A DNA stretch of 64,000 nt from Chloroflexia bacterium (GTDB lineage Bacteria; Chloroflexota; Chloroflexia; Thermomicrobiales; UBA6265): contig JBHWTK010000033.1 in the NCBI GenBank assembly GCA_043427975.1, positions 77,502 to 141,501 on the forward strand, in the 5' to 3' direction. The position numbers and the translations under genes were made by a program. Shown one piece after another: positions 1 through 46,733 of the stretch; the first letter of the stretch is position 1; the number at the start of each line of letters is the position of its first letter. The notes under the pieces were generated by a model. It saw only the letters and a program-made list of their open reading frames with translations. It ran no database searches and was not told where the DNA came from.

Positions 1-3
1 TCG

Positions 4-3708: not shown

Positions 3709-3875
3709 GGCGACCTCCGTTGGCTTGGGAGCCACGACATGGCGGGTGCCGGGTAGTAATCTCATCCTATCATCGGCATGACGCCACGATACCCGAATAC
3801 CTGGGTTGGTCGACTTCACTCGATTCGTGCTGACGCTTGTTCGAAAACGCTGCTATACTGCGTGCTGTGCGACGC

Positions 3876-3951
3876 GCCCGCGTAGCTCAACGGATAGAGC
3901 GTCTGTCTTCGGAACAGAAGGTTGTGGGTTCGATTCCTGCCGCGGGTACCA
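3876..3951 (+). tRNA. tRNA-Arg (anticodon TCG)
   Basis: Cloverleaf GCCCGCG/CGCGGGT, anticodon loop CUUCGGA, TTCGATT T-loop, encoded CCA. Confidence 0.9.
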
Positions 3952-3974
3952 GGATGTGAAGAAAAATGAGGTGA

Positions 3975-4000
3975 ACGGGAGGCCTTGGCCTCCCGTTTCT
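3975..4000 (+). terminator. rho-independent terminator after tRNA-Arg
   Basis: Hairpin acgggaggcc-tt-ggcctcccgt followed by ttct. Confidence 0.6.
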
Positions 4001-4143
4001 GCGTTCATCTGCCCGTGTTTCGGCTCCTTTGCAGGACAACGCCCTGCGGTACAATCGGCTGGATGTACCCGGCAAGACATCACTGCACCGCTCCCTGTTC
4101 CGGCCTGTTGACCTCGGCATCCTACCATTACAGGAGAACCTGA

Positions 4144-5322
4144 ATGCGCGCTTGCATTCTTTCCATCGGCTCGGAGCTCATGCTCGGCCAGATCACGGAC
4201 ACCAACGCCTCGTGGCTCGCTCGCGACCTCGCTGAGTCAGGGATTGAGCTGGTGCAGGTCACCCAGGTAGGTGACGACCGGACGCTGTTGCTTCGTGCAA
4301 TGAAAAACTCCCTCGAGATCGGCGATGTGGTGATCTGCACGGGAGGAATCGGCCCAACCGACGATGACCTCACCCGGGAGACGATTGCTGACCTCGTCGG
4401 CGAAACACCCGAGGTTGATGCCCATCTCCTGGCAGAGCTCGAAAAGTACTTCACTGATATGGGCCGTGTTATGCCGCCCCGAAACGCGAAGCAGGCCTGG
4501 GTTATACCCAGCGCAGAGAGCATCCCCAACCCGATCGGAACCGCTCCGGGCTGGTTTGTCACCGTTCCCGGCGAGTCTGGTAAGTACATTCTCACGATGC
4601 CGGGCGTGCCCCGGGAGATGTTCCGCATGTGGGAAGAGCAAATGAAGCCGCGCGTGCTCGGCAAATCCGAGGCGCAAATCATCGACACCTTGCAGATCAA
4701 GACGATCGGTATTGGTGAATCGGATGTCGAGGAGCGGATTCACGACCTTGTGCTCGCAGCGGACCCGCAGGTAGCTACATATGCCAAGGACGACGGGGTG
4801 CATATTCGCATCACGGCTCTGGGCACCGATCCGGGCGAGGTCCGGTCACGTCGCGACGCCGCACGCGATGAGGTGTACCGCCGGTTGGGGACGTTTATCT
4901 GGGGTTCTGATTCCGACACCCTGGCCGGTGTGATCGCGCAAGCCCTTTCGGCGCGGGGCCTGATGTTGAGCCTGCATGAGATCGGGACAGGCGGCGCGCT
5001 CGCGTCGTTACTGTCCGCCGATCCGGTAGCTGCTCGCAGTTACGTGCGCGATATCGTGGAGCCGAACGGGGAGCAAATTCGCGTGGACCACGATTGGCAT
5101 GCGGAACCTGGAAGCGTGAAGGTGACCATCAGGTTCGATGGGGAGATCGACGAGGCTGCAGTGTCTCGCGGCATGATGTTCCTGAGGGTGGACCACGAGA
5201 CACTGACAGAGCCGCTGGAGAAATCTTGGCAGGTCCGTGGAAGCCTCGCAGATATCCAGCGGAGGGTAGGGCTTAATGCCGTCCATGCTTTGCATGGTTG
5301 GCTGAACCAGCTGGAAGGCTAG
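4144..5322 (+). CDS. cinA: CinA family competence/damage-inducible protein (MoCF-binding domain plus PncC-like domain)
   Basis: N-terminus MRACILSIGSELMLGQITDTNASWLARDL is typical of the CinA molybdopterin-binding domain; 392 aa. Confidence 0.8.
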   Translation: MRACILSIGSELMLGQITDTNASWLARDLAESGIELVQVTQVGDDRTLLLRAMKNSLEIGDVVICTGGIGPTDDDLTRETIADLVGETPEVDAHLLAELEKYFTDMGRVMPPRNAKQAWVIPSAESIPNPIGTAPGWFVTVPGESGKYILTMPGVPREMFRMWEEQMKPRVLGKSEAQIIDTLQIKTIGIGESDVEERIHDLVLAADPQVATYAKDDGVHIRITALGTDPGEVRSRRDAARDEVYRRLGTFIWGSDSDTLAGVIAQALSARGLMLSLHEIGTGGALASLLSADPVAARSYVRDIVEPNGEQIRVDHDWHAEPGSVKVTIRFDGEIDEAAVSRGMMFLRVDHETLTEPLEKSWQVRGSLADIQRRVGLNAVHALHGWLNQLEG

Positions 5323-6245: not shown

Positions 6246-6599
6246 TTAACCCAGGCGGCCCTGTTTCTTGCCACCGAGAACGTGCATATGCAGGTGCATT
6301 ACTTCCTGTCCGCCGTCGGGTCCAATATTGGTGACGAGCCGATATCCCGATTCCGCCACGCCGGTGGTTGAGGCCACGGACTGGGCGGTATCCAGCATTT
6401 CCTGCCACAATCCCGTGTGTTCAGGGCCCACGTGGTGAGCACTTTGGACATGTGCCCTGGGCACTATCAGCACATGCACGGGCGACACCGGCGCAATATC
6501 GTTGAACGCAACAACGTTGTCGCTCTCGGCGACGAACTCCGTTTTCATCTCGCCGCTGGCAATCTTGCAGAAGATACAGCTCGCACTATCGCCGGTCAT
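6246..6599 (-). CDS. HIT (histidine triad) family protein
   Basis: Histidine triad HLHMHVLGG near C-terminus, N-terminal CIFCKI. Confidence 0.9.
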   Translation of the reverse strand: MTGDSASCIFCKIASGEMKTEFVAESDNVVAFNDIAPVSPVHVLIVPRAHVQSAHHVGPEHTGLWQEMLDTAQSVASTTGVAESGYRLVTNIGPDGGQEVMHLHMHVLGGKKQGRLG

Positions 6600-6643
6600 G
6601 TGTATGCTCCTTCCATTGGAACTCGCGTTTTACGGGACAAATT

Positions 6644-7477
6644 ATGCCAGAGTTACCTGAAGTAGAAACAGTCAAACGTATAGCTGAGCCGTTGATCGTC
6701 GGGCGGACCATCACGAAGGTTCATCTGAACCCGCTTTTCCCGGGTGTTCTTGTCGGGCCAGAGGGGGTAAACGCCGCCGGCACATTGCCAGGAATGCAGA
6801 TCACAGCCCTGGGGCGACGTGGTAAATACCTGATCGCGAATCTGGATCCCGGGTGGCACCTGATTATCCACCTGCGTATGACCGGCAGGCTGCTGGTGAT
6901 GGACTCCGCTGCAGAACCCGTCAGGTTCCAGCACCTTGCGCTGAGCCTCGATAATGGCACCGATCTGCGCTTTGCCGACCAGCGCAAATTTGGCCGGGTT
7001 CAACTGGCGGTCACTGATGAGGTGAAAGCGCTTCATAACCGGCTGGGCATAGAGCCACTCACTTTGGGGTTCACGCCGTACCGATTGGCTGAGTTGTTTG
7101 CCGACCGCCGTGCCCCGGTCAAGTCGTTGCTCCTCAATCAGCACATCATTGCGGGCCTGGGCAACATCTATGTCGATGAGGCATTGTTCCGGGCGGGAAT
7201 CCACCCGTTGATACCGGCGGGAGAGCTAAACCCAATTCTGTTGCGGGCCCTGTCGGAGGCGATCCAGTATGTGCTGAAGGTCGGTATCCGGAACCAGGGA
7301 ACCACATTTTCTTCCTTCGAGAATCCATACGGGGAAGCGGGCGGCAACGCTGGGTACCTGCGGGTCTACGGCAAGCGCGGTGAGCCGTGCCCGCGGTGCG
7401 GCCATGAGCTGGAGCGGATCGTTGTTGGTGGCAGGGGCACAACACTCTGTGCGCTATGTCAGCCCCGATCATACTGA
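6644..7477 (+). CDS. mutM: formamidopyrimidine-DNA glycosylase
   Basis: N-terminus MPELPEVETV, C-terminal zinc finger CPRCG...CALCQ. Confidence 0.9.
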   Translation: MPELPEVETVKRIAEPLIVGRTITKVHLNPLFPGVLVGPEGVNAAGTLPGMQITALGRRGKYLIANLDPGWHLIIHLRMTGRLLVMDSAAEPVRFQHLALSLDNGTDLRFADQRKFGRVQLAVTDEVKALHNRLGIEPLTLGFTPYRLAELFADRRAPVKSLLLNQHIIAGLGNIYVDEALFRAGIHPLIPAGELNPILLRALSEAIQYVLKVGIRNQGTTFSSFENPYGEAGGNAGYLRVYGKRGEPCPRCGHELERIVVGGRGTTLCALCQPRSY

Positions 7478-7524
7478 TCTGCACCATGGCGGTTTGGTAT
7501 AATCGATGCAGGCGAAAGCCAGTT

Positions 7525-7597
7525 GCGGGAGTAACTCAGTTGGTAGAGTGTCTGCTTCCCAAGCAGAATGTCGCGGGTTCGAGTCCCGTCTTCCGCT
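7525..7597 (+). tRNA. tRNA-Gly (anticodon CCC)
   Basis: Cloverleaf GCGGGAG/CTTCCGC, anticodon loop UUCCCAA, TTCGAGT T-loop; CCA not encoded. Confidence 0.9.
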
Positions 7598-7644
7598 CCG
7601 ATCCACAACTTTTAAGCACCAGAACTCGGGATGTACCGTCGGGC

Positions 7645-9096
7645 CTATGCCCGTAGCGCCTTGATGGTTCGCTGCGCATGACGAATCCAGCGATCGCTTT
7701 CGTCGCTTGTGAGCCATATCCCCAGGGCTATTGGCAGCCACATGAGAATCATCATGCCTGGCGTAAGGGCGTCCACGCGTACTTGCGCTGCAAGCGGCGC
7801 GAGCCACTTTACAATCACCAGCACAGTATCGAGCAGGATCCCCGGTATCCAGGCCAGCAGGCCCGCGAGGGAGGGCGCCACGAGCGCCAGCATCGCGAAC
7901 GGGTAGGTCACCCAAAATGCAAGTGTGATGATTGGCGCGATCAGGATGTTGGCGAGGATGCTGACTGGCGACCACGTTCCGAACGTCGCAAGGATGATTG
8001 GCATGGTGGCCAGCGACGCGGCCACCGGCCCGAGTCCGATCTCCAGCAGGCGACGACGGAGATCGCCGTTCAGATCCGACGGCAGGGCAAGGCACAGGGC
8101 GGCGGAGGCTGTGGCCGAGAGCCAAAACCCAACTCCATGGACCATGAGAGGATTGAATAACGCCATCCCACCCAATGTGAGGAAGAGGCTTGTCAGCGGG
8201 TCGGGACGTCGATAGATTGCCTGGCCGACGATCGTAAAGGTCGCGACGATTGCTGCCCGGAATGCCGGAGCCTCCAGCCCAACGAACAGGGCGTAACTCC
8301 ACACCACCAGGATAAGTACAAGGAAGAAGATCCGCCGCTTCAGGATAGTGTTGGGGTGCCACCAGAGGGCAAGGAAGCCGAGTATGATCGTAACGTTCTG
8401 GCCACTCACAGCTGTGATATGAGACGTACCTGTCGCCTGGAAGTTATCCCGGGCATCGGCTGAGAGATCGGAATCGTCGCCCGTCACAATCCCGGTTGCC
8501 AATGCAGCTGTGTCGTCTGGGAGTATGCGTGAGAGGCGATCGGCAACACTCTGGTTGGCCGATGCCAACCATCTGGTCGCACGGGGCCCAGGGTCCAAGA
8601 CAGTAATCTCGTACGCGTTGGTCTTTGCCGTCGCGTCGTGAGATCGAATGAAGTTCCTATATCCTGGCGACAACGCGGTGAGGGGCTGCACACGCCATTG
8701 CACCTGAATAACCTGGCCCCGCGAGATGGGTGGATCTTGGCGTTCTGCGTAGAGAAGCACTGTTTCCTCGGCCGGCGTGCATTGCTGGCCAATGCAAAGT
8801 TCCGAGACCTCGAAGACGGCGCGGTGACCTTCTCCGGCAGGTCGTGGAATGGAGGCTATTCGCCCTACTGCACCAGTGGAGGAAGCAAGGATATCGCTGG
8901 TAGTGGTAGAACCGGGCGCTTCAGATCTCACTGCTCCAACAGTGGCGAAGAAGATCGCGGCGAGGATGATGGACAGTCGTCGTTCTCGTTCGACGAGCAG
9001 GAGCAGCGCGACAGTTGCGAAGCACAAGGGCAGCGCGTACCAGCCAAACCAGACGCCAGCGAGTGCGCTGAGCCCGACCACGATACCGTTAGTCAC
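7645..9096 (-). CDS. comEC: ComEC/Rec2 family competence channel protein (no C-terminal MBL domain)
   Basis: Polytopic membrane protein with the competence-domain block GTSHITAVSGQNVTIILGF; 483 aa; overlaps comEA stop. Confidence 0.8.
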   Translation of the reverse strand: MTNGIVVGLSALAGVWFGWYALPLCFATVALLLLVERERRLSIILAAIFFATVGAVRSEAPGSTTTSDILASSTGAVGRIASIPRPAGEGHRAVFEVSELCIGQQCTPAEETVLLYAERQDPPISRGQVIQVQWRVQPLTALSPGYRNFIRSHDATAKTNAYEITVLDPGPRATRWLASANQSVADRLSRILPDDTAALATGIVTGDDSDLSADARDNFQATGTSHITAVSGQNVTIILGFLALWWHPNTILKRRIFFLVLILVVWSYALFVGLEAPAFRAAIVATFTIVGQAIYRRPDPLTSLFLTLGGMALFNPLMVHGVGFWLSATASAALCLALPSDLNGDLRRRLLEIGLGPVAASLATMPIILATFGTWSPVSILANILIAPIITLAFWVTYPFAMLALVAPSLAGLLAWIPGILLDTVLVIVKWLAPLAAQVRVDALTPGMMILMWLPIALGIWLTSDESDRWIRHAQRTIKALRA

Positions 9097-11645: not shown

Positions 11646-11690
11646 GGGGTGCCTAACGGGTTTCGAACCCGTAACCTCTTGTTCCACAGA
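11646..11690. repeat. attL: 45-bp direct repeat, a displaced 3' fragment of tRNA-His (anticodon loop to 3' end, with CCA)
   Basis: ggggtgcctaacgggtttcgaacccgtaacctcttgttccacaga is identical to 25988-26032; there is no 5' half of a tRNA here. Confidence 0.9.
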
Positions 11691-11818
11691 AAAGACTTGG
11701 TGCTAAGTTGCGTATGGGGCAGTTCGGCCCGGTTTGCGAAAAAGCCCATAAAATCCACGAAAACGGCTCATACTTTGTGGCAGAGTTTGGTAAAATAAGG
11801 GTTAGACGGGCGGAGTGT

Positions 11819-11850
11819 TCACGCCGCCATCACGCCGCCATCACGCCGCC
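11819..11850 (+). repeat. 3 x TCACGCCGCC at 11-bp spacing (candidate integrase arm-type sites, left arm)
   Basis: Copies at 11819-11828, 11830-11839 and 11841-11850; the same decamer recurs three times at 25883-25922. Confidence 0.6.
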
Positions 11851-11872
11851 GAGCACTGAGGGAACGTTCCAC

Positions 11873-13153
11873 ATGGCCGTAACACCACGCTACCGAATGG
11901 TGAAGAACCCGGAGACGGGCAAGAAGGAACCGGTGTACGCGAAGAAGAAGGGCGGTGGCATCCGGCTGGATAGCGAGGGCAAGCCGATACGCGAGGTTGT
12001 CAGCTGGAAGGTGGAAGTATGGGGTGTTGATGCCAGTGGTATGCGGCGGCGCAAGGTGGTAGGCAGCTACACCTACAAGGACGATGCCAAGCGAGCGGAG
12101 CGGGATGCGCTGCGAGCGATTGAGACGGGCGTGTTCGAGTGGGAGGAACGAAAGCCGGAGCCGGAGACGATCATTCCAAGCGTGCGCGAGGCGTGCGAGA
12201 CATGGATACGGCTAAAGGCGCTGAAGATAGAGCAAAACACGGTGAGCTCCTATGAGGGCGTATTGAAGAACCATATTGGCCCGGTGTTCGGAGACGAACA
12301 TGTGACGACCGTGACGCACGAGATGGTGCAGAGATGGGTTCTCGACATGCAAGAGGCCGGCAGGCATGCGCAGACAATCAGCCGTTCGCTGGTGGTGTTG
12401 AGTGGTGCGCTAGACCGGCAAGTACGCAGTGGCCTGCTAAGCGCAAACCCGGCGCTGGGCGTTGAGAAGCCGAGTGTCAACAAGGGCAAGAAAGACGTGG
12501 CACAGTGGAGCGCCGAACAGGTAGCAGCGTTCTTTGAGGCCGCCAGCGCTCACGACTATGCACCGGCGTTCTGGTTAGGTGAGCTGGAAGGCATGCGCCG
12601 GGCGGAAATCCTGGGCTTGCGTTGGAGCGATATACGCGGGCTGGATACGGACGGCGGCCCAGTGGTGGCGAGCATTGCGCAGACGTGCGTTGCCGACCAA
12701 CGCAACGGCGGCCGGGCGTTGCTGCAACCGAAGGCCAAAACCCGCAGTTCGGAGCGGGCGATTCTGCTCACACAGCCAACGGTAGAGGCGTTGCGACGAC
12801 ACCGCGATAAGCAGGCGTTCATCCGTAAGCAGGCGGGCGATGCGTGGCAGGCGCATGACCTGGTGATCTGTAACGAACTGGGCGAGCCGATACGGCCAGC
12901 GTGGTTCACGATCTGTACAAAGCGGATGGTGAAGGAAGCCGGGCTGCCAGAACTGACACCGCATGCGCTCCGACACCATGCGCTTACCCGGCTGCTGAGG
13001 CAGGGTGTAAGCCCGGCCTTGGCAGCACAGAAGGCTGGGCACAGCGATGTTGGGCTGGTGTATCGGAGCTATGGGCACTTGGTTCAGAGCGACCAGAGCG
13101 CGGCAAATGCGGCCATTGAACGCGAGCTAGCGACCGGTACAGGCCAGAGTTGA
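11873..13153 (+). CDS. int: tyrosine-type site-specific integrase
   Basis: C-terminal catalytic blocks HALRHHALT and GHSDVGLVYRSYGHL; basic N-terminal arm-binding-like domain; start set at ATG 11873 (MAVTPRYRMV) rather than 11708. Confidence 0.9.
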   Translation: MAVTPRYRMVKNPETGKKEPVYAKKKGGGIRLDSEGKPIREVVSWKVEVWGVDASGMRRRKVVGSYTYKDDAKRAERDALRAIETGVFEWEERKPEPETIIPSVREACETWIRLKALKIEQNTVSSYEGVLKNHIGPVFGDEHVTTVTHEMVQRWVLDMQEAGRHAQTISRSLVVLSGALDRQVRSGLLSANPALGVEKPSVNKGKKDVAQWSAEQVAAFFEAASAHDYAPAFWLGELEGMRRAEILGLRWSDIRGLDTDGGPVVASIAQTCVADQRNGGRALLQPKAKTRSSERAILLTQPTVEALRRHRDKQAFIRKQAGDAWQAHDLVICNELGEPIRPAWFTICTKRMVKEAGLPELTPHALRHHALTRLLRQGVSPALAAQKAGHSDVGLVYRSYGHLVQSDQSAANAAIERELATGTGQS

Positions 13154-16099: not shown

Positions 16100-16591
16100 A
16101 TGCCACCTTGCACGGTTTGTACACATCCAAAACGGCTACACATTGATCGGGCGCTAGTTACCGATGGTGCAACCGTGCGAGACACAGCGCGTAAGTTTGA
16201 CGTGACCGTTTCCGCACTTGGCAGGCACCGCAAGAACCATTTGGCACCGGCGCTCGCAAAGCATGAAGAGCATTTCGATTTGGCGACAGCTCAAGGTATC
16301 GGCAACCAGCTTGCCACCATTCACGCGGAGGCAACGCGGTTGCTGCACGAGGCCCGCGAGGACGGAAACCGGCGCGATCAGCTATCAGCACTCGCACGGC
16401 TGGAGCGGCAGATCGAGTTAGCTGCAAAGCTCGCAAGCCTGATTCAAGACGGCCAGAGAGTAGCCGTGTCGGTGCAACTTGATACCGGCTGGCCGCTGGT
16501 TCGGAGCGCGATTCTCGAAACCCTGGCTAACCATCCGGCGGCATTGCAGGCGGTGAGCGAACGATTGGCGGCGCTGGAGCAACCAACATGA
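16100..16591 (+). CDS. putative terminase small subunit (CxxC plus HTH N-terminus)
   Basis: MPPCTVCTHPKRLHIDRALVTDGATVRDTARKFDVTVSALGRHRKNH; stop overlaps the start of the terminase ATPase ORF (ATGA). The call is based on position plus the HTH. Confidence 0.5.
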   Translation: MPPCTVCTHPKRLHIDRALVTDGATVRDTARKFDVTVSALGRHRKNHLAPALAKHEEHFDLATAQGIGNQLATIHAEATRLLHEAREDGNRRDQLSALARLERQIELAAKLASLIQDGQRVAVSVQLDTGWPLVRSAILETLANHPAALQAVSERLAALEQPT

Positions 16592-17346
16592 ACGCGGTCG
16601 CTGACCTTGCCAAGGATTTGCGCCTGCGGTTGGATGCGAACGCGCTGGCCGAGCACTGCGGCTACGATCTGGACCCGTGGCAACGGGAGCTGGTGCAAAG
16701 CCCGGCAAAGCAAGTGCTGATAGCGGCAGCGCGGCAGGTTAGCAAGACGTTAGCTTGCAGCATCGTTGCAGCGTTTGAAGCATTGCGCTTGCCAGACGGT
16801 TTGATCGTGGTTGTATCGCCTAGCCAACGCCAAAGCACAGAGCTATTCCGGCAGGTTGTGGAGTTGCTACGTAAGGCAAAGCTGGAATCAATCACGGCTG
16901 AAAGCTCCATGCGGTGCGAGTTGGCAAACGGCTCGCGTGTGGTAGCACTGCCGGGCAGCTCGCAAACCATTCGCGGACTAAGCGGGGCGCGGGCGATCAT
17001 CGTTGACGAAAGCGCATTCGTGCCGGACGAACTGTACGCGGCGGTGCTGCCTATGGCGGCCACAAGTGACGGGCGCTTGATTCTGGCATCGTCACCGGCT
17101 GGCACGGTGGGCTACTTCGCTAGGCAGTGGCGGGATGGTGGCGAGACGTGGCAGCGGGTGAAAGTGCGAGCTGACCAATGCAGCCGGATTAGCCCAGAGT
17201 TCCTTGCACGGCAGCGGTTGATGCTGACCGCACAGCAATATGCAGCCGAGTTTGAAGCGGAATTTGTCGAGGGTGCGGGCGCGGTGTTCCGGGCCGATGA
17301 TCTGGCACGACTGCATGAAGAGCCGGTAGCGGCATGGGAGGTTTGA
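16588..17346 (+). CDS. terminase large subunit, ATPase domain only (N-terminal half)
   Basis: Deviant Walker A AARQVSKT, Walker B AIIVDES, PWQRE block typical of TerL N-termini; ends after about 250 aa. Confidence 0.65.
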   Translation: MNAVADLAKDLRLRLDANALAEHCGYDLDPWQRELVQSPAKQVLIAAARQVSKTLACSIVAAFEALRLPDGLIVVVSPSQRQSTELFRQVVELLRKAKLESITAESSMRCELANGSRVVALPGSSQTIRGLSGARAIIVDESAFVPDELYAAVLPMAATSDGRLILASSPAGTVGYFARQWRDGGETWQRVKVRADQCSRISPEFLARQRLMLTAQQYAAEFEAEFVEGAGAVFRADDLARLHEEPVAAWEV

Positions 17347-17348
17347 GC

Positions 17349-18116
17349 ATGGACACAAAGCGACGATACACCGGAGAGAATGGCAATTACGCAACGAACG
17401 TAGACCGCGATAGTGGAGCCTATGCGGGTGCAAGGCACCGTGTGAAGGGCTTTGAACCGGACGTGCCAACCGGGCCGGAAAAACTGAACGTGCAGGTTGG
17501 CATTGACGCGGGCCAGATTGGAGACAGCACGGCGGTTTCAATCTCGGAGTGGACTGCCCGCAATGATGGTTTGCATTTCATGGTGCGGCGGCTGGAGCGG
17601 CTGCCGCTTGGGCTGCCATACCCTGCACAAGCTGACCGCATTGTTGAAATTCTGGAAGGGCTGCGGGCGATGTCTGCTAAGTGGGAAGCCGAAGGTACGG
17701 GGGTCATGGACATTCTCACGGTGCTAGACGTTACTGGCGTCGGGCGCGGCCTATTCGATCTGCTGACAGAACGCGGCGAAACGATAGTGCCCGTCACCAT
17801 CACCAGCACCGAACGGCTTACACAGCGCGATGATGCTGAATGGAGTTGCGGCAAGAGCGTGCTAGTGAGCAACCTGCTTATCGGCATTCAGCGCGGCGCG
17901 GTTCACCTGCCACAAGGCACAGAGGCAGAGGCGCTGCTATCGGAGCTGCAAAGTTTCCGGCTGCAAGAGACGCCGAGCGGAAAGCTGACGTTCAACGCGA
18001 AGAGTGGTTCACATGACGATCTGATTACGGCCCTGGGATTATCGACACTGCCGGGGTTGCGGCCACCGGAGCCACCGGGCTTTTACGGCATGGCAGTTGT
18101 GAAAGGCGGCTGGTGA
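17349..18116 (+). CDS. terminase large subunit, RNase H-like nuclease domain only (C-terminal half)
   Basis: VGIDAGQIGDSTAV, VLDVTGVGRG and SGSHDDLITALGLS acidic blocks typical of the TerL nuclease; different frame from the ATPase ORF (alternative ATG at 17334 overlaps it by 13 nt). Confidence 0.6.
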   Translation: MDTKRRYTGENGNYATNVDRDSGAYAGARHRVKGFEPDVPTGPEKLNVQVGIDAGQIGDSTAVSISEWTARNDGLHFMVRRLERLPLGLPYPAQADRIVEILEGLRAMSAKWEAEGTGVMDILTVLDVTGVGRGLFDLLTERGETIVPVTITSTERLTQRDDAEWSCGKSVLVSNLLIGIQRGAVHLPQGTEAEALLSELQSFRLQETPSGKLTFNAKSGSHDDLITALGLSTLPGLRPPEPPGFYGMAVVKGGW

Positions 18117-19103: not shown

Positions 19104-19601
19104 ATGAAGCTAGTTATACTCAGCGGGCCCACGGGCGCCGGTAAAAATACGATAGCGGAATTGGTAGCGCAGCAGCGGGGTCGGTGTGCGGGGATCGACT
19201 TCGATGTGCTCCGCAATATGTTTCTTAAGCCCCATTTGACTCCTTGGGACGGCGACGCCGGGCATCGTCAGAACGTCTTGGGCGTTGACCATGCCTGTAT
19301 GTTGGCTAGCAGCCTCCTTGCCAATGGCTATGACTGCATAATCCTGGATGTGTTGAGTGATGAAACGGCATCCTTATACAAGGAAAGACTGAGTCACCAC
19401 GATCCGGTCATCGTTCAGCTTTTACCCACATATGACGAAATACTGAGGCGGAATCGTACGAGACCGCCTCGGCTGACTGATGAGGAGCTGGAAATGGTGT
19501 ACCAAGGTCAACTGGAGTTTTCGATGTTCGACGAACGAATAGACAACACTGGTCTTTCACCTCAAGAGGCGGCAGATCGCATTCTCGCGATGATTGCATA
19601 G
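19104..19601 (+). CDS. small P-loop NTPase/kinase (AAA_33 / zeta-toxin-like fold class)
   Basis: Walker A ILSGPTGAGKNT at residues 5-16; 165 aa; lines sampled here are about 43-50% GC by hand count versus about 60% in flanking host genes. Confidence 0.65.
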   Translation: MKLVILSGPTGAGKNTIAELVAQQRGRCAGIDFDVLRNMFLKPHLTPWDGDAGHRQNVLGVDHACMLASSLLANGYDCIILDVLSDETASLYKERLSHHDPVIVQLLPTYDEILRRNRTRPPRLTDEELEMVYQGQLEFSMFDERIDNTGLSPQEAADRILAMIA

Positions 19602-19865: not shown

Positions 19866-19911
19866 ATTGGCACCACGGTTGCAACGTAGGTGACTAACGG
19901 TCAGCGAGCCC

Positions 19912-21584
<1,673 letters not shown>

Positions 21585-21627
21585 ATCGCGAGAGTACCTG
21601 TTAGCACATTGAAGAATGGCAGGTGAT

Positions 21628-22389
21628 ATGGAACTAGCCCTTGTGATTGCGATTGTGGCGGCCGGATTTGCAGGCTGGACGGCCTGGGAATCCCGACGAT
21701 CTGCGGGCGCTGCTTTGGCATCCGCAAAGGCGGCGGAGAGTTCGGCGGCAGCGTCACAAGTGGCCGTGCAACTGGAATCAAAACGGTTCGAATGGGAGCA
21801 GAGCGCACGACTTGCGCTCACAGAGCGGAGTGCATATCAAGGCCACCTAAACACCGTGCTGGCTGCCCAGCTGAACAACGTGGTGAATGCGGCAGTGAAT
21901 GACTGGCCGGAGTACATCGCTTTTGAGTTCCGAAATGTCGGGCAAGCACCAGCCACCGATATAGATGTTCAAGCGCATTATCTGGGAGATGTGTTCAGGC
22001 CGCAAGACAGCGTGAAGGCAACGGTGGCGAGTGGTGAGACGGTGCACTTCGTTTTCAATGTGAAGACGTTTCCAACCGGACGTGCTGACATGATGAAATT
22101 TCTATTGCTCGTCAAATACCACGATATTCGGCCGCATGAGCTGGCACTACAAATGGCCGTTTACTCAAAAACCGGAGGGCCGGACAATCCGTATCTTGCA
22201 CATAACAAAGACGGTGCCTTCTACAAGCCTTCGGTTGTTCTGGCAGAGCTTGACGGTGCTCGGCACGAAGAGATGGAAACCGGCGACGTCGTTTGGGTGG
22301 ATGCGTCGCTAAAGATAGCTCGCGAGGAACGGAGACGAATGCGACGCGGCGATTTCGAATCAGGTGCAAAACAACCGTCCACTATGTAG
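21628..22389 (+). CDS. membrane-anchored hypothetical protein A1 (paralogue of 23235-23921)
   Basis: N-terminal hydrophobic helix MELALVIAIVAAGFAGWTAW followed by ESRRSAG; C-terminal domain with a FRNVGQAPA block reminiscent of a beta-sandwich; start at ATG 21628, supported by the conserved upstream GGCAGGTGAT. Confidence 0.7.
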   Translation: MELALVIAIVAAGFAGWTAWESRRSAGAALASAKAAESSAAASQVAVQLESKRFEWEQSARLALTERSAYQGHLNTVLAAQLNNVVNAAVNDWPEYIAFEFRNVGQAPATDIDVQAHYLGDVFRPQDSVKATVASGETVHFVFNVKTFPTGRADMMKFLLLVKYHDIRPHELALQMAVYSKTGGPDNPYLAHNKDGAFYKPSVVLAELDGARHEEMETGDVVWVDASLKIAREERRRMRRGDFESGAKQPSTM

Positions 22390-22416
22390 CGTTCGCATTC
22401 GATGGGCAGGGGAGAG

Positions 22417-23166
22417 ATGAGCAAGCCAAGCCGCAAAAGCAAGCGACAGCCGCGCCTTGGCATTTGCGTGTACTGCGGCATAAGCGGCGAAGTCACGAGA
22501 GACCATGTGATTCCCCGTGGCATGTTCCACCACCGAGCGAACTCCACCTTTACCGTTGATGCTTGCAGGGCATGTAACGTGGACAAGTCCAGATACGATC
22601 CTGAGCTGCGAGATTTTGCAATATCGAACATGAACTCGGGTCAGCATCCATACCACGACGAGATATTGCACCGCATGTTCCGAGCAGTAAGCCGTAATCA
22701 ATCGCGGATTGGAAGGCGTATCAAGTGGCTAGCAAGGCCACGGACGTTCGTGCATAACGGCGAGATTATCGACGGAGTTTCAGTCCCTATCGACGGAGAG
22801 GACCAGCGAAAGGCTGTTGCGTACATCGCCAAAGCGGTTTGGTATCGGCATTTCGATGAGGTGGCAACGGACGGCATGTTGGAGAGCCGATATTTTGACA
22901 TGTTCGCAATCAAGCCGGAGGTGATGATGCTGGAGATCACGGAATCGCAGCCGCCAATCCAGTTGCTCGACAAGGAAGGTGTCGCGCTCATCTGTGGTTG
23001 GCCGTTCGTTGTTGGTGATCGGGGTCGAAAGGTACTGTTCATAACTATGCGCTTCTATGGTGGCCCTGCTTATAGCGTTGTGATGGACAATCGCCGTAGT
23101 GAGCCGCTCGAAGATGAAGTGCCGATAGCCAAGATCGTGGCAAGCGGTGATCGTGCCGACGATTAA
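22417..23166 (+). CDS. HNH endonuclease-motif protein with uncharacterised C-terminal domain
   Basis: CVYCGISGEVTRDHVIPRG...CRACNVDKS (CxxC...DH...CxxCN..K beta-beta-alpha-metal finger); about 185 aa downstream unassigned; start ATG 22417 with a GGGGAGAG RBS (alternative 22402). Confidence 0.75.
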   Translation: MSKPSRKSKRQPRLGICVYCGISGEVTRDHVIPRGMFHHRANSTFTVDACRACNVDKSRYDPELRDFAISNMNSGQHPYHDEILHRMFRAVSRNQSRIGRRIKWLARPRTFVHNGEIIDGVSVPIDGEDQRKAVAYIAKAVWYRHFDEVATDGMLESRYFDMFAIKPEVMMLEITESQPPIQLLDKEGVALICGWPFVVGDRGRKVLFITMRFYGGPAYSVVMDNRRSEPLEDEVPIAKIVASGDRADD

Positions 23167-23234
23167 TGTTGATCGGTTGATCTATGGTGAGCCGAAAAGT
23201 TGCATGTTAGCTGTTAGAGGGAACGGCAGGCGAT

Positions 23235-23921
23235 ATGGAGCTAACCATTGCAATCCTCGGCTTGACAGTCGCGATTCTTGCCGCCGGATTTGCGGGCTGG
23301 ACCGCGTGGGAATCGCGACGATCTGCCGGTGCTTCTATAGCGTCTGCGAAGGCGGCAGAGAGTTCGGCAGCGGCGTCTGAGAAAGCCGTGCAGCTGGAGG
23401 CGCAGCGTTTTGACTGGGAGCGAACTGCGAGGCTTGTGCTGGTACGAAGAATGGTTAGCATCCATCAAGTTGAGCAGTTCGAGAACGCGGACCATATCCA
23501 ATGGCCAAGCGCGGTGGGACTGGAGCTTTCCAACGCAGGCCAAGCGCCTGCGCTTGGCCTGAAGATAGGGGCCTTGATTCTTGGAGAATATCATTTGCCC
23601 GTGCATTCCCCCAGTCAGTCAATCGGGCCGGGTGATTCAGCAGTCACTTACTTCGAGCTTCGGGATATAACGCTGCCGCCGGATCACTTGCTGCGCATGG
23701 TGGTCACCTGCCAGTATCACGATGTTGGTGCTCACGAATTGACGCTTCACTTGGCGCTTCATTCCAAGTCAGGTGCTCCAACCGATTCCCACCTCAGGCA
23801 CAACCGATATGGCAATTACTACCTGCCGTCAGTCACAGCTGCACGTCTAGACGGCGCGGACCTTGAAGGCTGGGAAACCGGAGACGTAATAGAACTCCGT
23901 AGAGGTGAGCTAAGACACTGA
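23235..23921 (+). CDS. membrane-anchored hypothetical protein A2 (paralogue of 21628-22389)
   Basis: MELTIAILGLTVAILAAGFAGWTAWESRRSAGASIASAKAAESSAAAS is nearly identical to A1; shared C-terminal YHD..HEL..SK.G.P..H.N..Y.PSV..LDGA..ETGDV. Confidence 0.7.
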   Translation: MELTIAILGLTVAILAAGFAGWTAWESRRSAGASIASAKAAESSAAASEKAVQLEAQRFDWERTARLVLVRRMVSIHQVEQFENADHIQWPSAVGLELSNAGQAPALGLKIGALILGEYHLPVHSPSQSIGPGDSAVTYFELRDITLPPDHLLRMVVTCQYHDVGAHELTLHLALHSKSGAPTDSHLRHNRYGNYYLPSVTAARLDGADLEGWETGDVIELRRGELRH

Positions 23922-24052: not shown

Positions 24053-25834
24053 TTGACTGAGGTAAATGAAGCGGCTGAAATCGATCCGATTACTACTTTG
24101 GCGGTCTCGATGCAGGCCCAGCAAGGCACATTTGCTTTACTTCTCGGTTCTGGCGTATCGCAATCCGCACAGATTCCAACCGGATGGGCTATTATCGAGG
24201 ACTTGATTAGGCGCATCGCCAAAGTCGAGGGCCATGAGATTCAAGGGAAGCCCACAGACTGGTACCAGGAAACCTACGGCGAAGAACCTGACTACAGTCG
24301 ATTGCTTGACGCACTATCAACGACCCCACTGGAACGAAGCCAGATCATCAAGCGGTTCATTGAGCCAACAGAAGAAGAGCGTGAGGTAGGGGTGAAGCAG
24401 CCGACCTTAGCGCACCGGTCGATTGCCTCACTCGTTGCCAAGGGCTACGTCAAAGTCATCGTCACTACGAATTTTGACCGGCTGCTCGAAACGGCATTGG
24501 CTGACGCAGGGGTGGTGCCTTCGGTGATTAGCACACCCGATGACGTCCAGGGGACACTGCCCTTGGCGCACAACGCTTGTACCATCATCAAAATCCATGG
24601 TGACTATCTTGATTCCCGCATTCGCAATACCACCGACGAGTTGTCTAACTACCCGGTAGAGATGAGGAACCTCTTATCCCAGGTGTTTCGGGAGTATGGG
24701 CTAATCGTGAGCGGCTGGTCAGGGGATTGGGATCACGCGTTGTGCGAGGCGATGTGTGAGACGTTAAGTCCGTGGTTTCCCACGTACTGGGTTTCCTATC
24801 GAGAACCAGGTAAGAAAGCGCAGGGGATTGTCGAGCAGCGGGGCGGCAAGCTGATAACAAACATGGGAGCAGACGCATTCTTTGAACGGTTGGCAGACAG
24901 CGTTGCAGCGGTGGAAGATATGCAGAATCCTGAACTGGTCTCCGTTGATATTGCTGTAGCAACGCTGAAACGGTATCTTGATGATCCTTCCAAGCGCATC
25001 CGTCTTCACGATTTGGTGATTGGGGAAGCTACCCGTGTTCAACGGTCACTCATCGAAGTTCCGGCAGGTTATTTCCTTGAGAACCCAACCCAGGAATCCG
25101 TCGTCAATCGATTGGAATCTTATGAAGCGAGTACCGCTGTACTTCGGGCTCTATTTATCACCGGATGTTACTGGTCGGCAGATGACCACGATCTCCGCCC
25201 TTGGGTTACTGCGCTGGAGCGCCTTGCTGCCTTAGGAAATGGACCAGGAACCTTCCATCGTCATTGGGTAGCGCTACGGCGATACCCGGCACTCCTAACG
25301 CTTTTTGCCGGCGGAATTGCCGCGCTGGCGAACCGTCGGTTCAAGACTCTCCATGCGTTGCTCTATCAACCGGCATCAATTGATATTTATCGACATGAAC
25401 GCAATCCCATGGTCATTTCTGTCCATCAGGCGTTGTTCGAACCGGTGGCCGATCTTCTCTATCCCGGATACTACTCCGACACAGCCGCAAGCCTGCGAAT
25501 GCGAAATACCGAATCTCTGTGGTCGGTGCTGCGAGAATACGTCCCGGACCAAGATCGATTCAAAGAGCTGTTCAACGAGTTCGAGTATCTATTCGGGCTC
25601 GTCCACACAGACTTGGCTCACCAGCATGATTTCGGCGCGTGGTATCCAACCGGTCTACTTCCATACCTTGGGCACGGTTATGACCGTGACAAACTAATCG
25701 AGCGGATGGACAGGGAGGTTCAGGAAATGCAGAGCCAGTGGCCACCGTTGCAAGCTGGGATGTTTAGCGGGTCACTCGGACGGTTACAGGAGGTCAAACA
25801 AGAATTCGATGAACGGCTGAAGAAGCGTCATTAG
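24053..25834 (+). CDS. SIR2_2-family (sirtuin-like) protein with about 300-aa uncharacterised C-terminal region
   Basis: FALLLGSGVSQSAQIPTGW (Gly-rich NAD loop), VIVTTNFDRLLE, IIKIHGDYLD; TTG start 7 nt after AAGGAG. Confidence 0.8.
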   Translation: MTEVNEAAEIDPITTLAVSMQAQQGTFALLLGSGVSQSAQIPTGWAIIEDLIRRIAKVEGHEIQGKPTDWYQETYGEEPDYSRLLDALSTTPLERSQIIKRFIEPTEEEREVGVKQPTLAHRSIASLVAKGYVKVIVTTNFDRLLETALADAGVVPSVISTPDDVQGTLPLAHNACTIIKIHGDYLDSRIRNTTDELSNYPVEMRNLLSQVFREYGLIVSGWSGDWDHALCEAMCETLSPWFPTYWVSYREPGKKAQGIVEQRGGKLITNMGADAFFERLADSVAAVEDMQNPELVSVDIAVATLKRYLDDPSKRIRLHDLVIGEATRVQRSLIEVPAGYFLENPTQESVVNRLESYEASTAVLRALFITGCYWSADDHDLRPWVTALERLAALGNGPGTFHRHWVALRRYPALLTLFAGGIAALANRRFKTLHALLYQPASIDIYRHERNPMVISVHQALFEPVADLLYPGYYSDTAASLRMRNTESLWSVLREYVPDQDRFKELFNEFEYLFGLVHTDLAHQHDFGAWYPTGLLPYLGHGYDRDKLIERMDREVQEMQSQWPPLQAGMFSGSLGRLQEVKQEFDERLKKRH

Positions 25835-25882: not shown

Positions 25883-25922
25883 TCACGCCGCCAAATAGCA
25901 TTCACGCCGCCGTCACGCCGCC
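25883..25922 (+). repeat. 3 x TCACGCCGCC (candidate integrase arm-type sites, right arm)
   Basis: Copies at 25883-25892, 25902-25911 and 25913-25922, in the same orientation as the left-arm copies. Confidence 0.6.
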
Positions 25923-25987
25923 ACGAAAAACAGTGAACCGGCCACCCTGTATGAGTGGCCGATTTCCTTGATTCTATAGGGTTTCCG

Positions 25988-26032
25988 GGGGTGCCTAACG
26001 GGTTTCGAACCCGTAACCTCTTGTTCCACAGA
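25988..26032. repeat. attR: 45-bp direct repeat inside the intact tRNA-His gene
   Basis: Identical to 11646-11690. Confidence 0.9.
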
Positions 26033-26062
26033 CAAGCGCTCTGCCGTTGAGCTATAGGCACC
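25990..26062 (-). tRNA. tRNA-His (anticodon GTG)
   Basis: Cloverleaf with extra G-1 opposite C73, acceptor GTGCCTA/TAGGCAC, anticodon loop CUGUGGA, TTCGAAA T-loop; followed by CCC rather than CCA. Confidence 0.9.
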
Positions 26063-26074
26063 GTGTAAACGTGT

Positions 26075-26415
26075 TTGAAGAAGGAGGTGTAAGCCGAGTT
26101 CTGTTCTAAATGGTCATCTCTCTCAACCCGGAGGCTGGTCACATCGTCGCCTTTGTGACGGCTCTCGACTTCCGGCCTTGGCGAGCAGCCTAATTGCGGC
26201 CGAATCGGAGATTGCTGCGGGGAGGATTGCCCTTTTCACTCCGCGGTCGCCCGCGGCTTTGGTCTCTGTTGCTCTCGCACGGTTGCCCGTACGCCAATCT
26301 GGACTGTCGATCCGCCAAAGCGGACCTCCCTGGTTTTCACCAGGCACCCTTGCTCTACGCAGCCCGGACTTTCCTCTGGTAGCATGTGCCACCAGCGACC
26401 ATCCCCTTGCTTCCC
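26075..26415 (-). ncRNA. rnpB: RNase P RNA (bacterial type A)
   Basis: Minus strand contains AGAGGAAAGUCCGGGCUGC (26362-26375 region) and ACAGAACUCGGCUUAC (P4 strands), plus UUAGGCUGCU...GAUGACC...; ends estimated from P1 pairing GAAGCAAGG/CCUCCUUCUUC. Confidence 0.85.
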
Positions 26416-26857
26416 AAGCACGTTAACATCTTAAGGTGCGGCTGCGTATGCACGCAGCATCGCCGTCCCTTCGCTACCGCTCAGGGCACCCGTATTTATA
26501 CATCATTCCCTCCTGGATGTCACACGCTTTGCCAAGCCACATCTGCCAACAAGGCGGGACCTCCTGGCTCGCGACTCTCTCCCAAGATCAACTGAATCAC
26601 CATCCATAAGCTTCCCCGAAATGGAGTCGGATCACGTGCATCCAGCCCGCGTCGGTATATTGGTGACTGGTGGTTAGGCTAATTCGCACGTCTCCTCTCG
26701 ACTTAATTTTGCGAAGTCGTGGGTTTACGGATATGGTTTTGGTAGGGTGATGTCAGAAGGTCTGTTGTCATTCGTTTATTGGGGACGCATTTGGCAACGT
26801 ATGTCGGATGCGAGCAGCGTGCACGTTAGTCGGCTTTGAGGCCGGCGGGAGGTAGTG

Positions 26858-27931
26858 ATGGGTAAGAGATTAAGTCAGGTACTGGCCACGTTCCTGACCG
26901 TTGTCATGATGGTTGGCGCTCCTTCAATCGCAGCCGCATCCGGAATGTACGCGAGCCAGGGCAGTGGCCAGCAGGTCGCCTGGGACTCGGGATGGCAGGA
27001 AAAGGCTTTGGAGGAAAAGGACGCCGCTATTGCCGATAGCGTGTTCCTTGAGCATGGTGATTCCGGTGCCGAGTTGTTGGTGGCGTTTGTCGCGGCGGAT
27101 GGTGACGCAATTGCTGTTCGTGATGCCGCCTTCGCTGCATCCGGCCGCTCGGGTGCCAAGGTCTCACAGCTAGAAGACGGTGCATATGGCGATGTGAGCT
27201 ATAGCGTGGAACTTCTTCGAGCCGATGCAGGGGAGCCCGAGGGCGTATTCACCCTGAAAATCGCGAACACCGGTGCCGGTACGGCGGTCATCTACGTATT
27301 GGTCACCGATGCCGATGCGTTCTCTGAAGGGGTGAGCGCGGTACAGGTTGGTATCACCGTTGATGGCACTGCCGCCATGAATGGCGTTGATCCGGCCGGC
27401 ATGCAGAGCTTCCTCAACCTGGCCCAGGGAACGTCCACCCAGACCACGGGAACGGTGCAGGTTCCGACAGCCGAGGTGGTGCCGACTCAGGAACCGGTGA
27501 ACACGACAACGTCCAGTGGGAACTCGTTCACAAGCCCGGTATGGGGCTACACGGTCGAGTACGATGCCCCGTTCATGGATATGAGCGACGAGGCGGATCT
27601 TGACTTCATGGTCGCGAGTTACTCCCCGCTCGTGGTTGTCGGCTTCATGGGTCTTGAGAACCCGGGGGCCTCTCCGTCCGCAATTTTCGAAGCGCTTACG
27701 CCAACATTCATTGACTCGCTCGGTTCGAACGGGCGGTACATTGACGGCGGGTACATGAATGACCGGGCCGTTTGGGCAGGTGTTACGTCCGACGGTAACC
27801 AGATGGTTCAGCAGGTCGTCATCGTGAGCCCCTCGACGGTGGTTATCGTCACAATTCTTGGCGAGCCGGGCGTGAACATGTCGGAAGTTGGCGATGTACG
27901 GCTCAACGGCGTTTCGGTGTTCGGCAACTAG
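26858..27931 (+). CDS. secreted hypothetical protein
   Basis: Signal peptide-like N-terminus MGKRLSQVLATFLTVVMMVGAPSIAAASG; GGGAGG RBS. Confidence 0.6.
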   Translation: MGKRLSQVLATFLTVVMMVGAPSIAAASGMYASQGSGQQVAWDSGWQEKALEEKDAAIADSVFLEHGDSGAELLVAFVAADGDAIAVRDAAFAASGRSGAKVSQLEDGAYGDVSYSVELLRADAGEPEGVFTLKIANTGAGTAVIYVLVTDADAFSEGVSAVQVGITVDGTAAMNGVDPAGMQSFLNLAQGTSTQTTGTVQVPTAEVVPTQEPVNTTTSSGNSFTSPVWGYTVEYDAPFMDMSDEADLDFMVASYSPLVVVGFMGLENPGASPSAIFEALTPTFIDSLGSNGRYIDGGYMNDRAVWAGVTSDGNQMVQQVVIVSPSTVVIVTILGEPGVNMSEVGDVRLNGVSVFGN

Positions 27932-46299: not shown

Positions 46300-46444
46300 A
46301 ACTCACTCCTCAATGCGTGCGGGACAATGACCCGGCGCTGCCGCTCCCATTGGGGCGCAGTGGCAGAAAAAGCAGGCATTTCCCATTCAGTTGGATCAGG
46401 AGAGTTTCCAGAGGAGTGAGGCGAGGCCTCGTGCACGCTGGAGT

Positions 46445-46577
46445 GGCGTTGTCGGGTTGTTACCAACCCGGTTTGACCACTGCATATCGACTGTGCGGCC
46501 GGGGGATCATCCGCCGATACTTTCGATAAATCCCCACCTCGTCGACCTTTTCGACCAAGAAAAGGCCCTGGCGCTGT
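46445..46577 (-). ncRNA. glmS ribozyme (GlcN6P-dependent self-cleaving riboswitch)
   Basis: Minus strand reads AGCGCCAGGGCC...GGUCGACGAGGUGGGGAUUUAUCGAAAGUAUCGGCGGAUGAUCCCCCGGCC..., matching the conserved core AGCGCCAG...GACGAGG..AUUAUCGAA..UCGGCGGAUG..CCCGGC; located in the glmS leader. Confidence 0.85.
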
Positions 46578-46733
46578 AAAACGGAATCGTCCCTCTGTAG
46601 ATTCTCGTACGTACAATGCTACAACCTCCAGTGCCTGCCCGGCAAGCATGCGTTCACCGTATACTGGAAGCGTCAAATCGCCCTCGGAAGGCGGGCGAAA
46701 TATCCTCAGCTTGTATCCCACATGGAGTAGCTC

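Follow-up and report, generated by a model that had tools for sequence, protein, structure and literature searches.

A1 and A2 of a Chloroflexia tRNA-His element: a rare family of small membrane proteins with a cassette-like Ig-fold domain

The locus described here raises the question of whether two related small proteins, designated A1 and A2, serve the putative effector genes standing next to them or act on their own. They are encoded in a 64,000-nucleotide (nt) stretch of DNA, below called the window, from a Chloroflexia bacterium (assembly GCA_043427975.1, contig JBHWTK010000033.1, positions 77,502 to 141,501). Between 19.9 and 25.9 kb, the plus strand of the window carries five open reading frames (ORFs) in series, namely a DNA methyltransferase gene fused to an Mrr-type domain (MTase-Mrr), A1, an HNH-motif gene (HNH), A2, and a SIR2-like gene (SIR2). 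Both genes belong to the accessory cargo of a 14.4-kb element integrated at a tRNA-His gene, where they lie toward the attR end. Their products represent a family of small membrane proteins with a single membrane pass that is very rare and has no annotation. Comparison with their relatives shows that the C-terminal beta domain behaves as a cassette exchanged between conserved flanks. This structural and evolutionary description can be given with high confidence. The fuller explanation, in which the A proteins would also have an autonomous, type-specific recognition or exclusion function, draws on analogy and is proposed tentatively, its chances being put somewhat below even.

A1 and A2 are 45% identical over 220 amino acids (aa), with one 8-residue gap and an E value of 2e-52 in BLASTP, and the preliminary description of a paralogous pair bracketing the HNH gene was correct. 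When the alignment is split after the ...ARL motif, identity is 79% in the N-terminal part (62 aligned residues) and 34% in the rest. The same gradient is seen in the DNA, with 76-83% identity in the first ~150 nt of the coding sequence and 44-58% beyond. The first ~65 residues, which had been called almost identical, are thus less similar than was stated, and five residues inside the hydrophobic helix, present in every other close member, are absent from A1. Without these residues the hydrophobic stretch of A1 is ~17-19 residues long, unless the true start is the ATG at 21616 (MAGD...). A similarity confined to low-complexity Ala-rich sequence is ruled out because the proposed pairwise alignment of proteins and DNA segments runs through the whole beta-rich C-terminal part. 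The fold motifs NxGxAPA, YxD..H.L, and PSV..LDG are common to both proteins and are somewhat denser toward the C-terminus. Of the proposed pattern of conserved ends with a variable middle, this C-terminal density of motifs remains, but the proteins really consist of a conserved N-terminal module and a divergent, fully alignable beta domain. The duplication extends, as had been noticed, into the upstream DNA including the ribosome-binding site. The boxes AATGGCAGGTGATATGGA (21615-21632, A1) and AACGGCAGGCGATATGGA (23222-23239, A2) are the same at 16 of 18 positions, TGTTAGC stands upstream of both genes, and GTTAGC is found at equal distance upstream of the A gene in the syntenic locus L004, described below. 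AGGTGAT of the upstream block is complementary to the 3' end of 16S rRNA, and the conserved box (Shine-Dalgarno-like AGGTGAT plus GTTAGC) probably reflects function too.

The family is extremely rare: the libraries searched derive from some 15 billion proteins, and six distinct close members, A1 and A2 included, were found in them. Among 5.8 billion clusters, a word-indexed search returned A1 itself, a fragment of A2, and the relatives P0002 and P0003 only; P0005 and P0006 were added by an exhaustive profile search of 1.84 billion cluster representatives. An NCBI source already has the 253-aa sequence that starts at the A1 ATG at 21628 (P0001). About 30 remote small proteins of 113-280 aa (E 1e-10 to 1e-3) have the same architecture as the A proteins, that is, a short acidic N-terminus, a transmembrane (TM) helix, a basic pair, a helix of the type 'SADAA..SA.AAE.SA.AA', and a beta domain with NxGxxxAxDV and Y/WxDxxG. 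There is no entry for the family in Pfam, PHROGs, PADLOC, or NCBIfam. Neither A1 nor A2 had a significant match in Pfam, PADLOC, or NCBIfam, nothing was found for A1 in PHROGs, and A2 gave two weak PHROG matches, phrog_9090 (membrane protein, 1.8e-3) and phrog_9343 (0.037); in these scans the statement that no characterised family could be recognised holds. No A-family relative was obtained by pattern scans of genome, viral, and metagenome contig collections, and tblastn found no match to A1 in 50,697 phage records and none to A2 in 72,556 plasmid records. That A1 and A2 might be phage proteins of a known structural or lysis type was also considered and was rejected, the PHROG matches being weak and compositional and the phage and plasmid searches empty.

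In the N-terminal module, A1 and A2 differ at a proportion of 0.66 of synonymous sites (pS; corrected distance dS about 1.6) and 0.12 of nonsynonymous sites (pN), with omega about 0.09 (Nei-Gojobori). As the synonymous sites are nearly saturated, the duplication is ancient, with the N-terminal similarity kept by purifying selection, and both A1 and A2 are real genes under such selection. A recent tandem duplication or gene conversion of the two N-termini is ruled out by the pS of 0.66. Some more recent exchange is seen between P0002 and P0005 (pS 0.40). The C-domains of A1 and its closest homologue P0002 differ with pN 0.26 and pS 0.85.

The two parts of the proteins have different relationships. 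According to the N-terminal module, A1, A2, and P0003 form one group (77-79% identity) and P0002 and P0005 another (90%). According to the beta domain, A1 is grouped with P0002 (60%) and A2 with P0005 and P0003 (42-51%), and P0006 stands apart at 22-28%. When the DNA of L001 and L005, the loci of P0002 and P0005, is aligned, identity is 75% over 186 nt upstream and rises to 87% (locally up to 94%) over the initial 193 nt of the gene. Along the beta domain it drops to 47%, and in the 47-nt 3' flank it is again 81%; the first breakpoint coincides with the junction of the stalk and the beta domain. Likewise, the MTase-Mrr genes of the window and L004 encode proteins 79% identical, and the beta domains of the adjoining A proteins are only 28% identical. 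These discordant groupings and the sharp recombination breakpoint at the junction show that the beta domain behaves as an exchangeable cassette of at least three divergent types between conserved flanks. A specificity-determining region had been suspected in the middle of the proteins; a variable cassette does exist, but it comprises the whole beta domain and not a middle block.

The A proteins have a very short acidic N-terminus and a single hydrophobic segment at the extreme N-terminal end of the chain, followed by a strongly conserved basic, Ala/Ser-rich helix with the signature SRRSAGA..ASAKAAESSAAAS..AVQLE..RF.WE..ARL and a CARDB-like beta-sandwich of the Ig fold. In a full-length AlphaFold2 model built on the family alignment, a long N-terminal helix (residues 4-59) precedes an all-beta domain with moderate confidence (mean predicted local distance difference test score, pLDDT, 68; predicted template modelling score, pTM, 0.57). 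The domain alone, modelled with ten sequences, is confidently predicted to be a beta-sandwich (mean pLDDT 80.8, pTM 0.78). The recommended structure prediction and Foldseek check accordingly gave a beta-sandwich with only generic Ig-like neighbours, among them the KirBac cytoplasmic domain, gamma-adaptin ear, ASF1, TRAP subunits, and fusexin/HAP2 domain III, and the best BFVD match is an uncharacterised viral protein (1.1e-4). A profile search of PDB sequences gave no significant match. In the exhaustive HMMER search of the 1.84 billion representatives, positions 88-147 of the A-family profile also matched giant proteins built of CARDB and DUF11 repeats. With positions 62/88-146 it aligns to all six CARDB repeats of P0009, a protein matching Pfam CARDB at 1.4e-116. 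Pfam CARDB is matched directly by two of the 37 family members, both remote (8.5e-5), and by neither A1 nor A2 at E<=0.1, the PF07705 gathering score of 22.7 bits not being reached. The earlier hunch of a CARDB- or Ig-like domain is thereby borne out at the level of fold and remote homology, with A1 and A2 themselves below the Pfam threshold.

An N-out/C-in orientation had been proposed from the positive charges after the helix. Charge-based prediction agrees with it, as the positive-inside pattern is found in all six close members and across the 37 family members, where the N-terminal flank has a mean charge of -0.65 with 0.2 Lys plus Arg, and the first 10 residues after the helix +1.5 with 2.2 Lys plus Arg. 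An N-out/C-in orientation is thus strongly suggested, and with it the stalk and the beta-sandwich would face the cytoplasm.

Related loci were compared for ties of the A genes to HNH, SIR2, or MTase-Mrr. L004, from a different sequencing run, is syntenic with the window: it has the same site of tRNA-His, RNase P RNA, tRNA-Leu, tRNA-Thr, TPR, and RuvB genes, the same integrase, and the same split terminase. Its MTase-Mrr orthologue is followed by a single A gene (P0006), a hairpin, and tRNA-His, with no HNH and no SIR2. The defence cargo of L004 is a SMODS nucleotidyltransferase and a SLATT_4 membrane protein (6562-7955, minus strand) at the place of a kinase-like gene in the window, which indicates cargo turnover in this family of elements. 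Locus L002 has an RmrA-like gene (24-1169) matching the RosmerTA antitoxin model with helix-turn-helix (HTH) and peptidase M78 domains (PADLOC 3.7e-139), and a small HTH_3 gene (1699-1917). P0003, an A2-type protein, is encoded after this small gene, ~0.9 kb downstream of the RmrA-like gene, and is followed by a hairpin and a tRNA-His-like 3' end. In L005, the gene of P0005 lies after the end of an MTase-Mrr gene, with a 235-bp spacer with its own conserved sequence between them, and in L001 the gene of P0002 lies after a divergent gene. From the A gene to the end of the short contig, both L001 and L005 have a conserved 3' flank. No HNH or SIR2 was found in the sequence of L001, L002, and L005, which are contigs of 1-3 kb only. 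In L004 and L005, as with A1 in the window, the gene immediately before A is MTase-Mrr.

The SIR2 protein matches PADLOC PDC-S65, a single-gene candidate, over its full length (1.7e-194, residues 9-591), and also Pfam SIR2_2 (8.2e-12). It has 2896 homologues at E<=1e-20. When six-frame ORFs of 81 PDC-S65 SIR2 loci (L012-L092), comprising 80 genome loci across many phyla and L012 with a 71%-identical homologue, were searched with the A-family profile at E<=10, no A-like ORF was found. Because SIR2 belongs to a common family listed by PADLOC as single-gene, the apparent repeat of "anchor + effector" is specific to this locus. MTase-Mrr has more than 200 homologues in metagenomes. In 83 loci with homologues of 40-65% identity, no gene was detected with the close-family profile, and a single weak match (L145, E=2.3e-4) came from the looser profile of 37 members. 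The HNH protein, of which a 249-aa form starting at 22417 is recorded as P0043, is a near-orphan. It matches Pfam HNH_5 at 1.1e-3, below the curated cut-off, and PADLOC PDC-M01B weakly and in the HNH motif only (1.2e-6, residues 20-88), and its ~170-aa C-terminal region has no recognisable family and no PDB relative. Its single relative among the 5.8 billion clusters, P0044, is a weak one (54% over 21% of the query) and has no A-like neighbour.

Remote members in L006, L176, and L177 are each preceded on the same strand, at a gap of 41-73 bp, by an unannotated protein of 283-470 aa without a Pfam or PADLOC family. The proteins of L176 and L177, which were compared, are unrelated to each other. 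These upstream proteins could be variable partners. An HTH_3 gene adjoins the remote member P0034. As a conserved rule, the pairing of A1 with HNH and of A2 with SIR2 is not supported by L004, which has neither, nor by the 81 SIR2 loci, and in the suggested survey of gene neighbourhoods no HNH or SIR2 stood beside the A genes of L004 and, within contigs of 1-3 kb, of L001, L002, and L005. The A family belongs to one narrow lineage of tRNA-His elements and occurs without both effectors, as SIR2 occurs without A.

With regard to function, it is proposed that each A protein would act autonomously at the inner membrane face, in recognition or exclusion of a type-specific kind. The conserved TM helix and stalk would serve for anchoring and probably for oligomerisation, the ligand of the variable Ig-fold domain would be some component of an entering phage or of a rival element, and the A1-type and A2-type proteins would give the element two specificities. 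The setting of A genes among defence and mobile-element genes counts in favour of this proposal (RmrA near P0003, SMODS and SLATT in L004, HTH_3 beside P0034). Several points weigh against it. A1 and A2 have no homology to known exclusion or defence proteins in the libraries and tblastn searches named above, and three Foldseek searches of PDB and BFVD found generic Ig-like sandwiches only (best PDB E 6e-3, TM-score <=0.52). The topology is predicted from charge distribution, and the dS of the beta domain is saturated, so that positive selection there cannot be read from these data. The sample of close relatives is tiny, most of them lie on contigs of 1-3 kb, and their occurrence without effectors is read mainly from L004 and L002. 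Finally, the five right-arm genes may form one operon, and local cooperation is thus possible. The sole promoter-like consensus of the right arm is at 19890-19917, upstream of MTase-Mrr, its sole strong hairpin is after SIR2, and there is no terminator inside the gene string.

One form of such cooperation was implied by the preliminary description, in which A1 and A2 would be membrane anchors or sensors of A1+HNH and A2+SIR2 modules, the soluble effector being tethered or activated at the membrane where phage DNA enters. The alternating A-effector-A-effector order on one strand, the gap of only 12 bp from the A1 stop to the HNH start, and the transcription signals just mentioned speak for such modules. 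So do the strong PDC-S65 match of SIR2, the weak PDC-M01B match of HNH, and a beta domain that, being predicted cytoplasmic, could touch soluble proteins. However, the widespread PDC-S65 SIR2 is listed as a single gene and is free of an A-like ORF in all 81 loci, the 71%-identical homologue included. Downstream of the A genes of L004 and L002 come a hairpin and tRNA-His instead of an effector, and a conserved 3' flank follows those of L001 and L005 to the contig end. A2 and SIR2 are separated by 131 bp, and A1 and A2 match no PADLOC partner model. Modules of this kind seem rather unlikely, and so does the tethering or activation at the membrane. The opposite pairing, in which an A protein works with the gene upstream of it (MTase-Mrr+A1, HNH+A2, SIR2 alone) as a trailing accessory subunit of variable enzymes, agrees with the position of MTase-Mrr directly before the A gene in the window, L004, and L005, with the same-strand proteins 41-73 bp upstream of remote members in L006, L176, and L177, and with a solitary SIR2 of the single-gene PDC-S65 type. 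It has a slender chance of being right in view of the 83 MTase-Mrr loci without a close A gene (and with the single weak match L145 in the looser search), the divergent upstream gene in L001, the small HTH gene in L002, the 235-bp conserved spacer in L005, and the dissimilarity of the L176 and L177 partners.

A membrane-disrupting role, as abortive-infection effectors or holin- or spanin-like proteins oligomerising through the TM and Ala-rich helices, would leave the hypervariable Ig-fold domain unexplained if the proteins were pure pore-formers. It would fit the abundance of small residues in the TM helix and the long Ala/Ser-rich helix that comes next, and in PHROGs several remote members weakly match Rz-like spanins, and one a holin (E 2e-4 to 6e-3). 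Such matches are also what a TM plus Ala-rich composition would give; A1 has none, and that of A2 to phrog_9090 is at 1.8e-3. No endolysin, o-spanin, or structural gene was recognised in the element, and spanins are N-in/C-out with a periplasmic coiled coil, against the predicted N-out/C-in orientation and beta-sandwich here, so this role too is improbable. It is highly improbable that the second copy has no function and is a by-product left when two related tRNA-His elements recombined or integrated in tandem. The elements are mosaic, with shared A-gene flanks that could drive recombination, and the composite cargo of HNH and SIR2 is absent from the syntenic L004. Against a by-product, A1 and A2 are both intact ORFs, the N-terminal module has an omega of about 0.09 despite nearly saturated synonymous sites, both types of C-domain have conserved counterparts in other metagenomes, and A1-HNH-A2-SIR2 occurs with identical proteins in three other sequencing runs. 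No remnant internal att site, a sign of tandem integration, was found inside the island. A further and quite unlikely idea is that the A family represents a modular membrane-tethered sensor or adaptor, in which the TM helix and stalk oligomerise (perhaps A1 with A2) and the cytoplasmic cassettes recognise phage components and recruit or license the adjacent effector, be it HNH, SIR2, or MTase-Mrr. If true, it would be a new plug-and-play class of membrane-associated defence on a satellite-like element. Autonomous recognition or exclusion by each A protein remains the preferred, tentative explanation.

The element itself is a 14.4-kb island between att sites, and the coordinates of its features are given in Table 1. 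It encodes an integrase, a primase-like protein, a split large terminase, a P-loop kinase-like protein, and the five right-arm genes. An exact 29-mer core repeat occurs at 11648-11676 and 25990-26018 only. As no capsid, portal, or tail genes were recognised among the island ORFs scanned, the element looks satellite-like; endolysin, o-spanin, and other lysis genes were likewise not recognised in the island. The split of the terminase is kept in L004 (3332-4090 and 4093-4854) and is therefore not a sequencing frameshift. Three copies of TCACGCCGCC stand just inside each end (11819-11850 and 25883-25922) and nowhere else in the 64 kb; possibly they are arm-type integrase binding sites. The A1-HNH-A2-SIR2 order was found with identical proteins in three further sequencing runs, and thus the arrangement is stable.

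Table 1. Coordinates of A1, A2, their neighbours, and the element in the window, and of genes upstream of remote family members in other loci
Locus	Feature	Coordinates	Strand	Basis or remark
Window	MTase-Mrr: N6/N4 DNA methyltransferase fused to C-terminal Mrr_cat / NA-iREase1 domain	19950-21584	+	Pfam
Window	A1 upstream block: TGTTAGC (21599-21605) and GGCAGGTGAT, Shine-Dalgarno-like box abutting ATG (21615-21632)	21599-21632	+	alignment with A2 upstream
Window	A1 coding sequence, 253 aa (257 aa from alternative ATG 21616)	21628-22389	+	
Window	A1 TM helix	about 21628-21690	+	
Window	A1 Ala/Ser-rich helical stalk	about 21691-21813	+	
Window	A1 CARDB-like beta-sandwich	about 21814-22266	+	
Window	A1 basic C-terminal tail	about 22267-22386	+	
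Window	HNH-motif protein, 254 aa; N-terminal HNH and ~170-aa C-terminal region	22402-23166	+	neighbour
Window	A2 upstream block: TGTTAGC (23205-23211) and AACGGCAGGCGATATGGA (23222-23239)	23205-23239	+	alignment with A1 upstream
Window	A2 coding sequence, 228 aa	23235-23921	+	
Window	A2 TM helix	about 23241-23312	+	
Window	A2 stalk	about 23313-23435	+	
Window	A2 CARDB-like beta-sandwich	about 23436-23891	+	
Window	SIR2-like protein, 593 aa, PADLOC PDC-S65 member	24053-25834	+	neighbour, 131 bp from A2
Window	GC-rich terminator-like hairpin at end of MTase-A1-HNH-A2-SIR2 string	25936-25964		homologous hairpin after A gene in L004, L002
Window	attL, 45-nt copy of tRNA-His 3' part, left element boundary	11646-11690	+	repeat search, sequences read
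Window	tRNA-His with attR (25988-26032), right element boundary	25988-26062	-	
Window	Tyrosine integrase	11708-13153		PHROG 2.3e-51
Window	Terminase_6N ORF	16588-17346		large terminase, split
Window	Terminase_6C ORF	17334-18116		large terminase, split
L006	Upstream partner gene of remote member	2828-4240		
L176	Upstream partner gene of remote member	2-889		cut by contig end at 295 aa
L177	Upstream partner gene of remote member	40-891		

Some other features of the window were observed. The small P-loop protein at the start of the cargo region (19104-19601) has weak similarity to zeta-toxin, chloramphenicol phosphotransferase, and polynucleotide kinase. An RNase P RNA (26075-26414, minus strand; Rfam RF00010, 103.9 bits) adjoins tRNA-His and attR, and probably neither the ORFs listed over it nor a 105-aa gene called in L004 is genuine. 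Between RNase P RNA and tRNA-Leu the window is ~1.7 kb longer than L004 (26440-28200 in the window, 11350-11470 in L004), and the extra sequence encodes a 358-aa protein (26855-27931) with a signal-peptide-like N-terminus and no Pfam family. A glmS ribozyme/riboswitch is located at 46429-46586 (minus strand; Rfam RF00234, 87.2 bits).

The A family consists of element-borne single-pass membrane proteins with an Ig-like domain; its cassette structure and extreme rarity, with few relatives, are notable. If the proposed function holds, mobile elements would carry a family of membrane proteins, not annotated before, that exchange a cytoplasmic Ig-fold cassette, and the family would be a compact model of how small integrated elements diversify recognition specificity beside defence cargo. 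The result for A genes and SIR2 separates co-location from partnership. The wider family of ~37 small proteins with TM helix, SA-rich helix, and CARDB-like domain could be defined as a new domain family for surveys of defence islands.

In comparison with known systems, the beta-sandwich resembles CARDB (PF07705) and DUF11 Ig-like (E-set) repeats in its xNxGxxxA strand motif and can be aligned to CARDB repeats. It differs from them in being a single domain and not a tandem repeat, in scoring below the Pfam threshold in A1 and A2, in extra C-terminal strands bearing YxD..H.L and PSV..LDG, and in its predicted cytoplasmic position on an N-terminal TM tether, CARDB being usually extracytoplasmic or at the cell surface. 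With respect to PADLOC PDC-S65 and PDC-M01, the neighbouring SIR2 is a clear PDC-S65 member and HNH a weak PDC-M01B match, whereas A1 and A2 match no PADLOC model and are absent from the 81 PDC-S65 loci. The PDC-M01 partner model is unmatched by A1 and A2, the neighbours of HNH. An identity with the RmrT toxin of RosmerTA was considered and rejected, as no PADLOC model is matched by A1 or A2 and no RmrA is present in the island of the window.

CBASS Cap15 consists of TM helices and a beta-barrel. The A proteins are like it in being small, with an N-terminal membrane anchor, a C-terminal all-beta domain, and a neighbourhood of defence genes, and unlike it in having one TM helix and not two, an Ig-like sandwich and not a barrel, no conserved cyclase or other signal-generating partner, and no homology. 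Rz-like i-spanins (PHROG 214, 739, and 2466) share the N-terminal TM helix and Ala-rich helix, and remote members match them weakly; the predicted topology of the A proteins is opposite, their C-terminus is a beta-sandwich, and no o-spanin, endolysin, or lysis cassette accompanies them.

TraS and the Eex proteins of SXT/R391 are small exclusion proteins of the inner membrane; their specificity determinants are reported to lie in the cytoplasm, and they fall into separate exclusion groups (PMC11493245). The A proteins show no sequence or fold relation to IncF TraS or SXT/R391 Eex, and their element has terminase and not conjugation genes. Like these proteins, they are small, have a single TM helix, and are encoded inside an att-bounded mobile element, and their domain is variable, cassette-like, and predicted to be cytoplasmic. 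Their three divergent C-domain types may encode different specificities. The likeness of the A proteins to entry- or superinfection-exclusion proteins would thus be a functional one only, and it is by this analogy that a role in recognition or exclusion is suggested for them.

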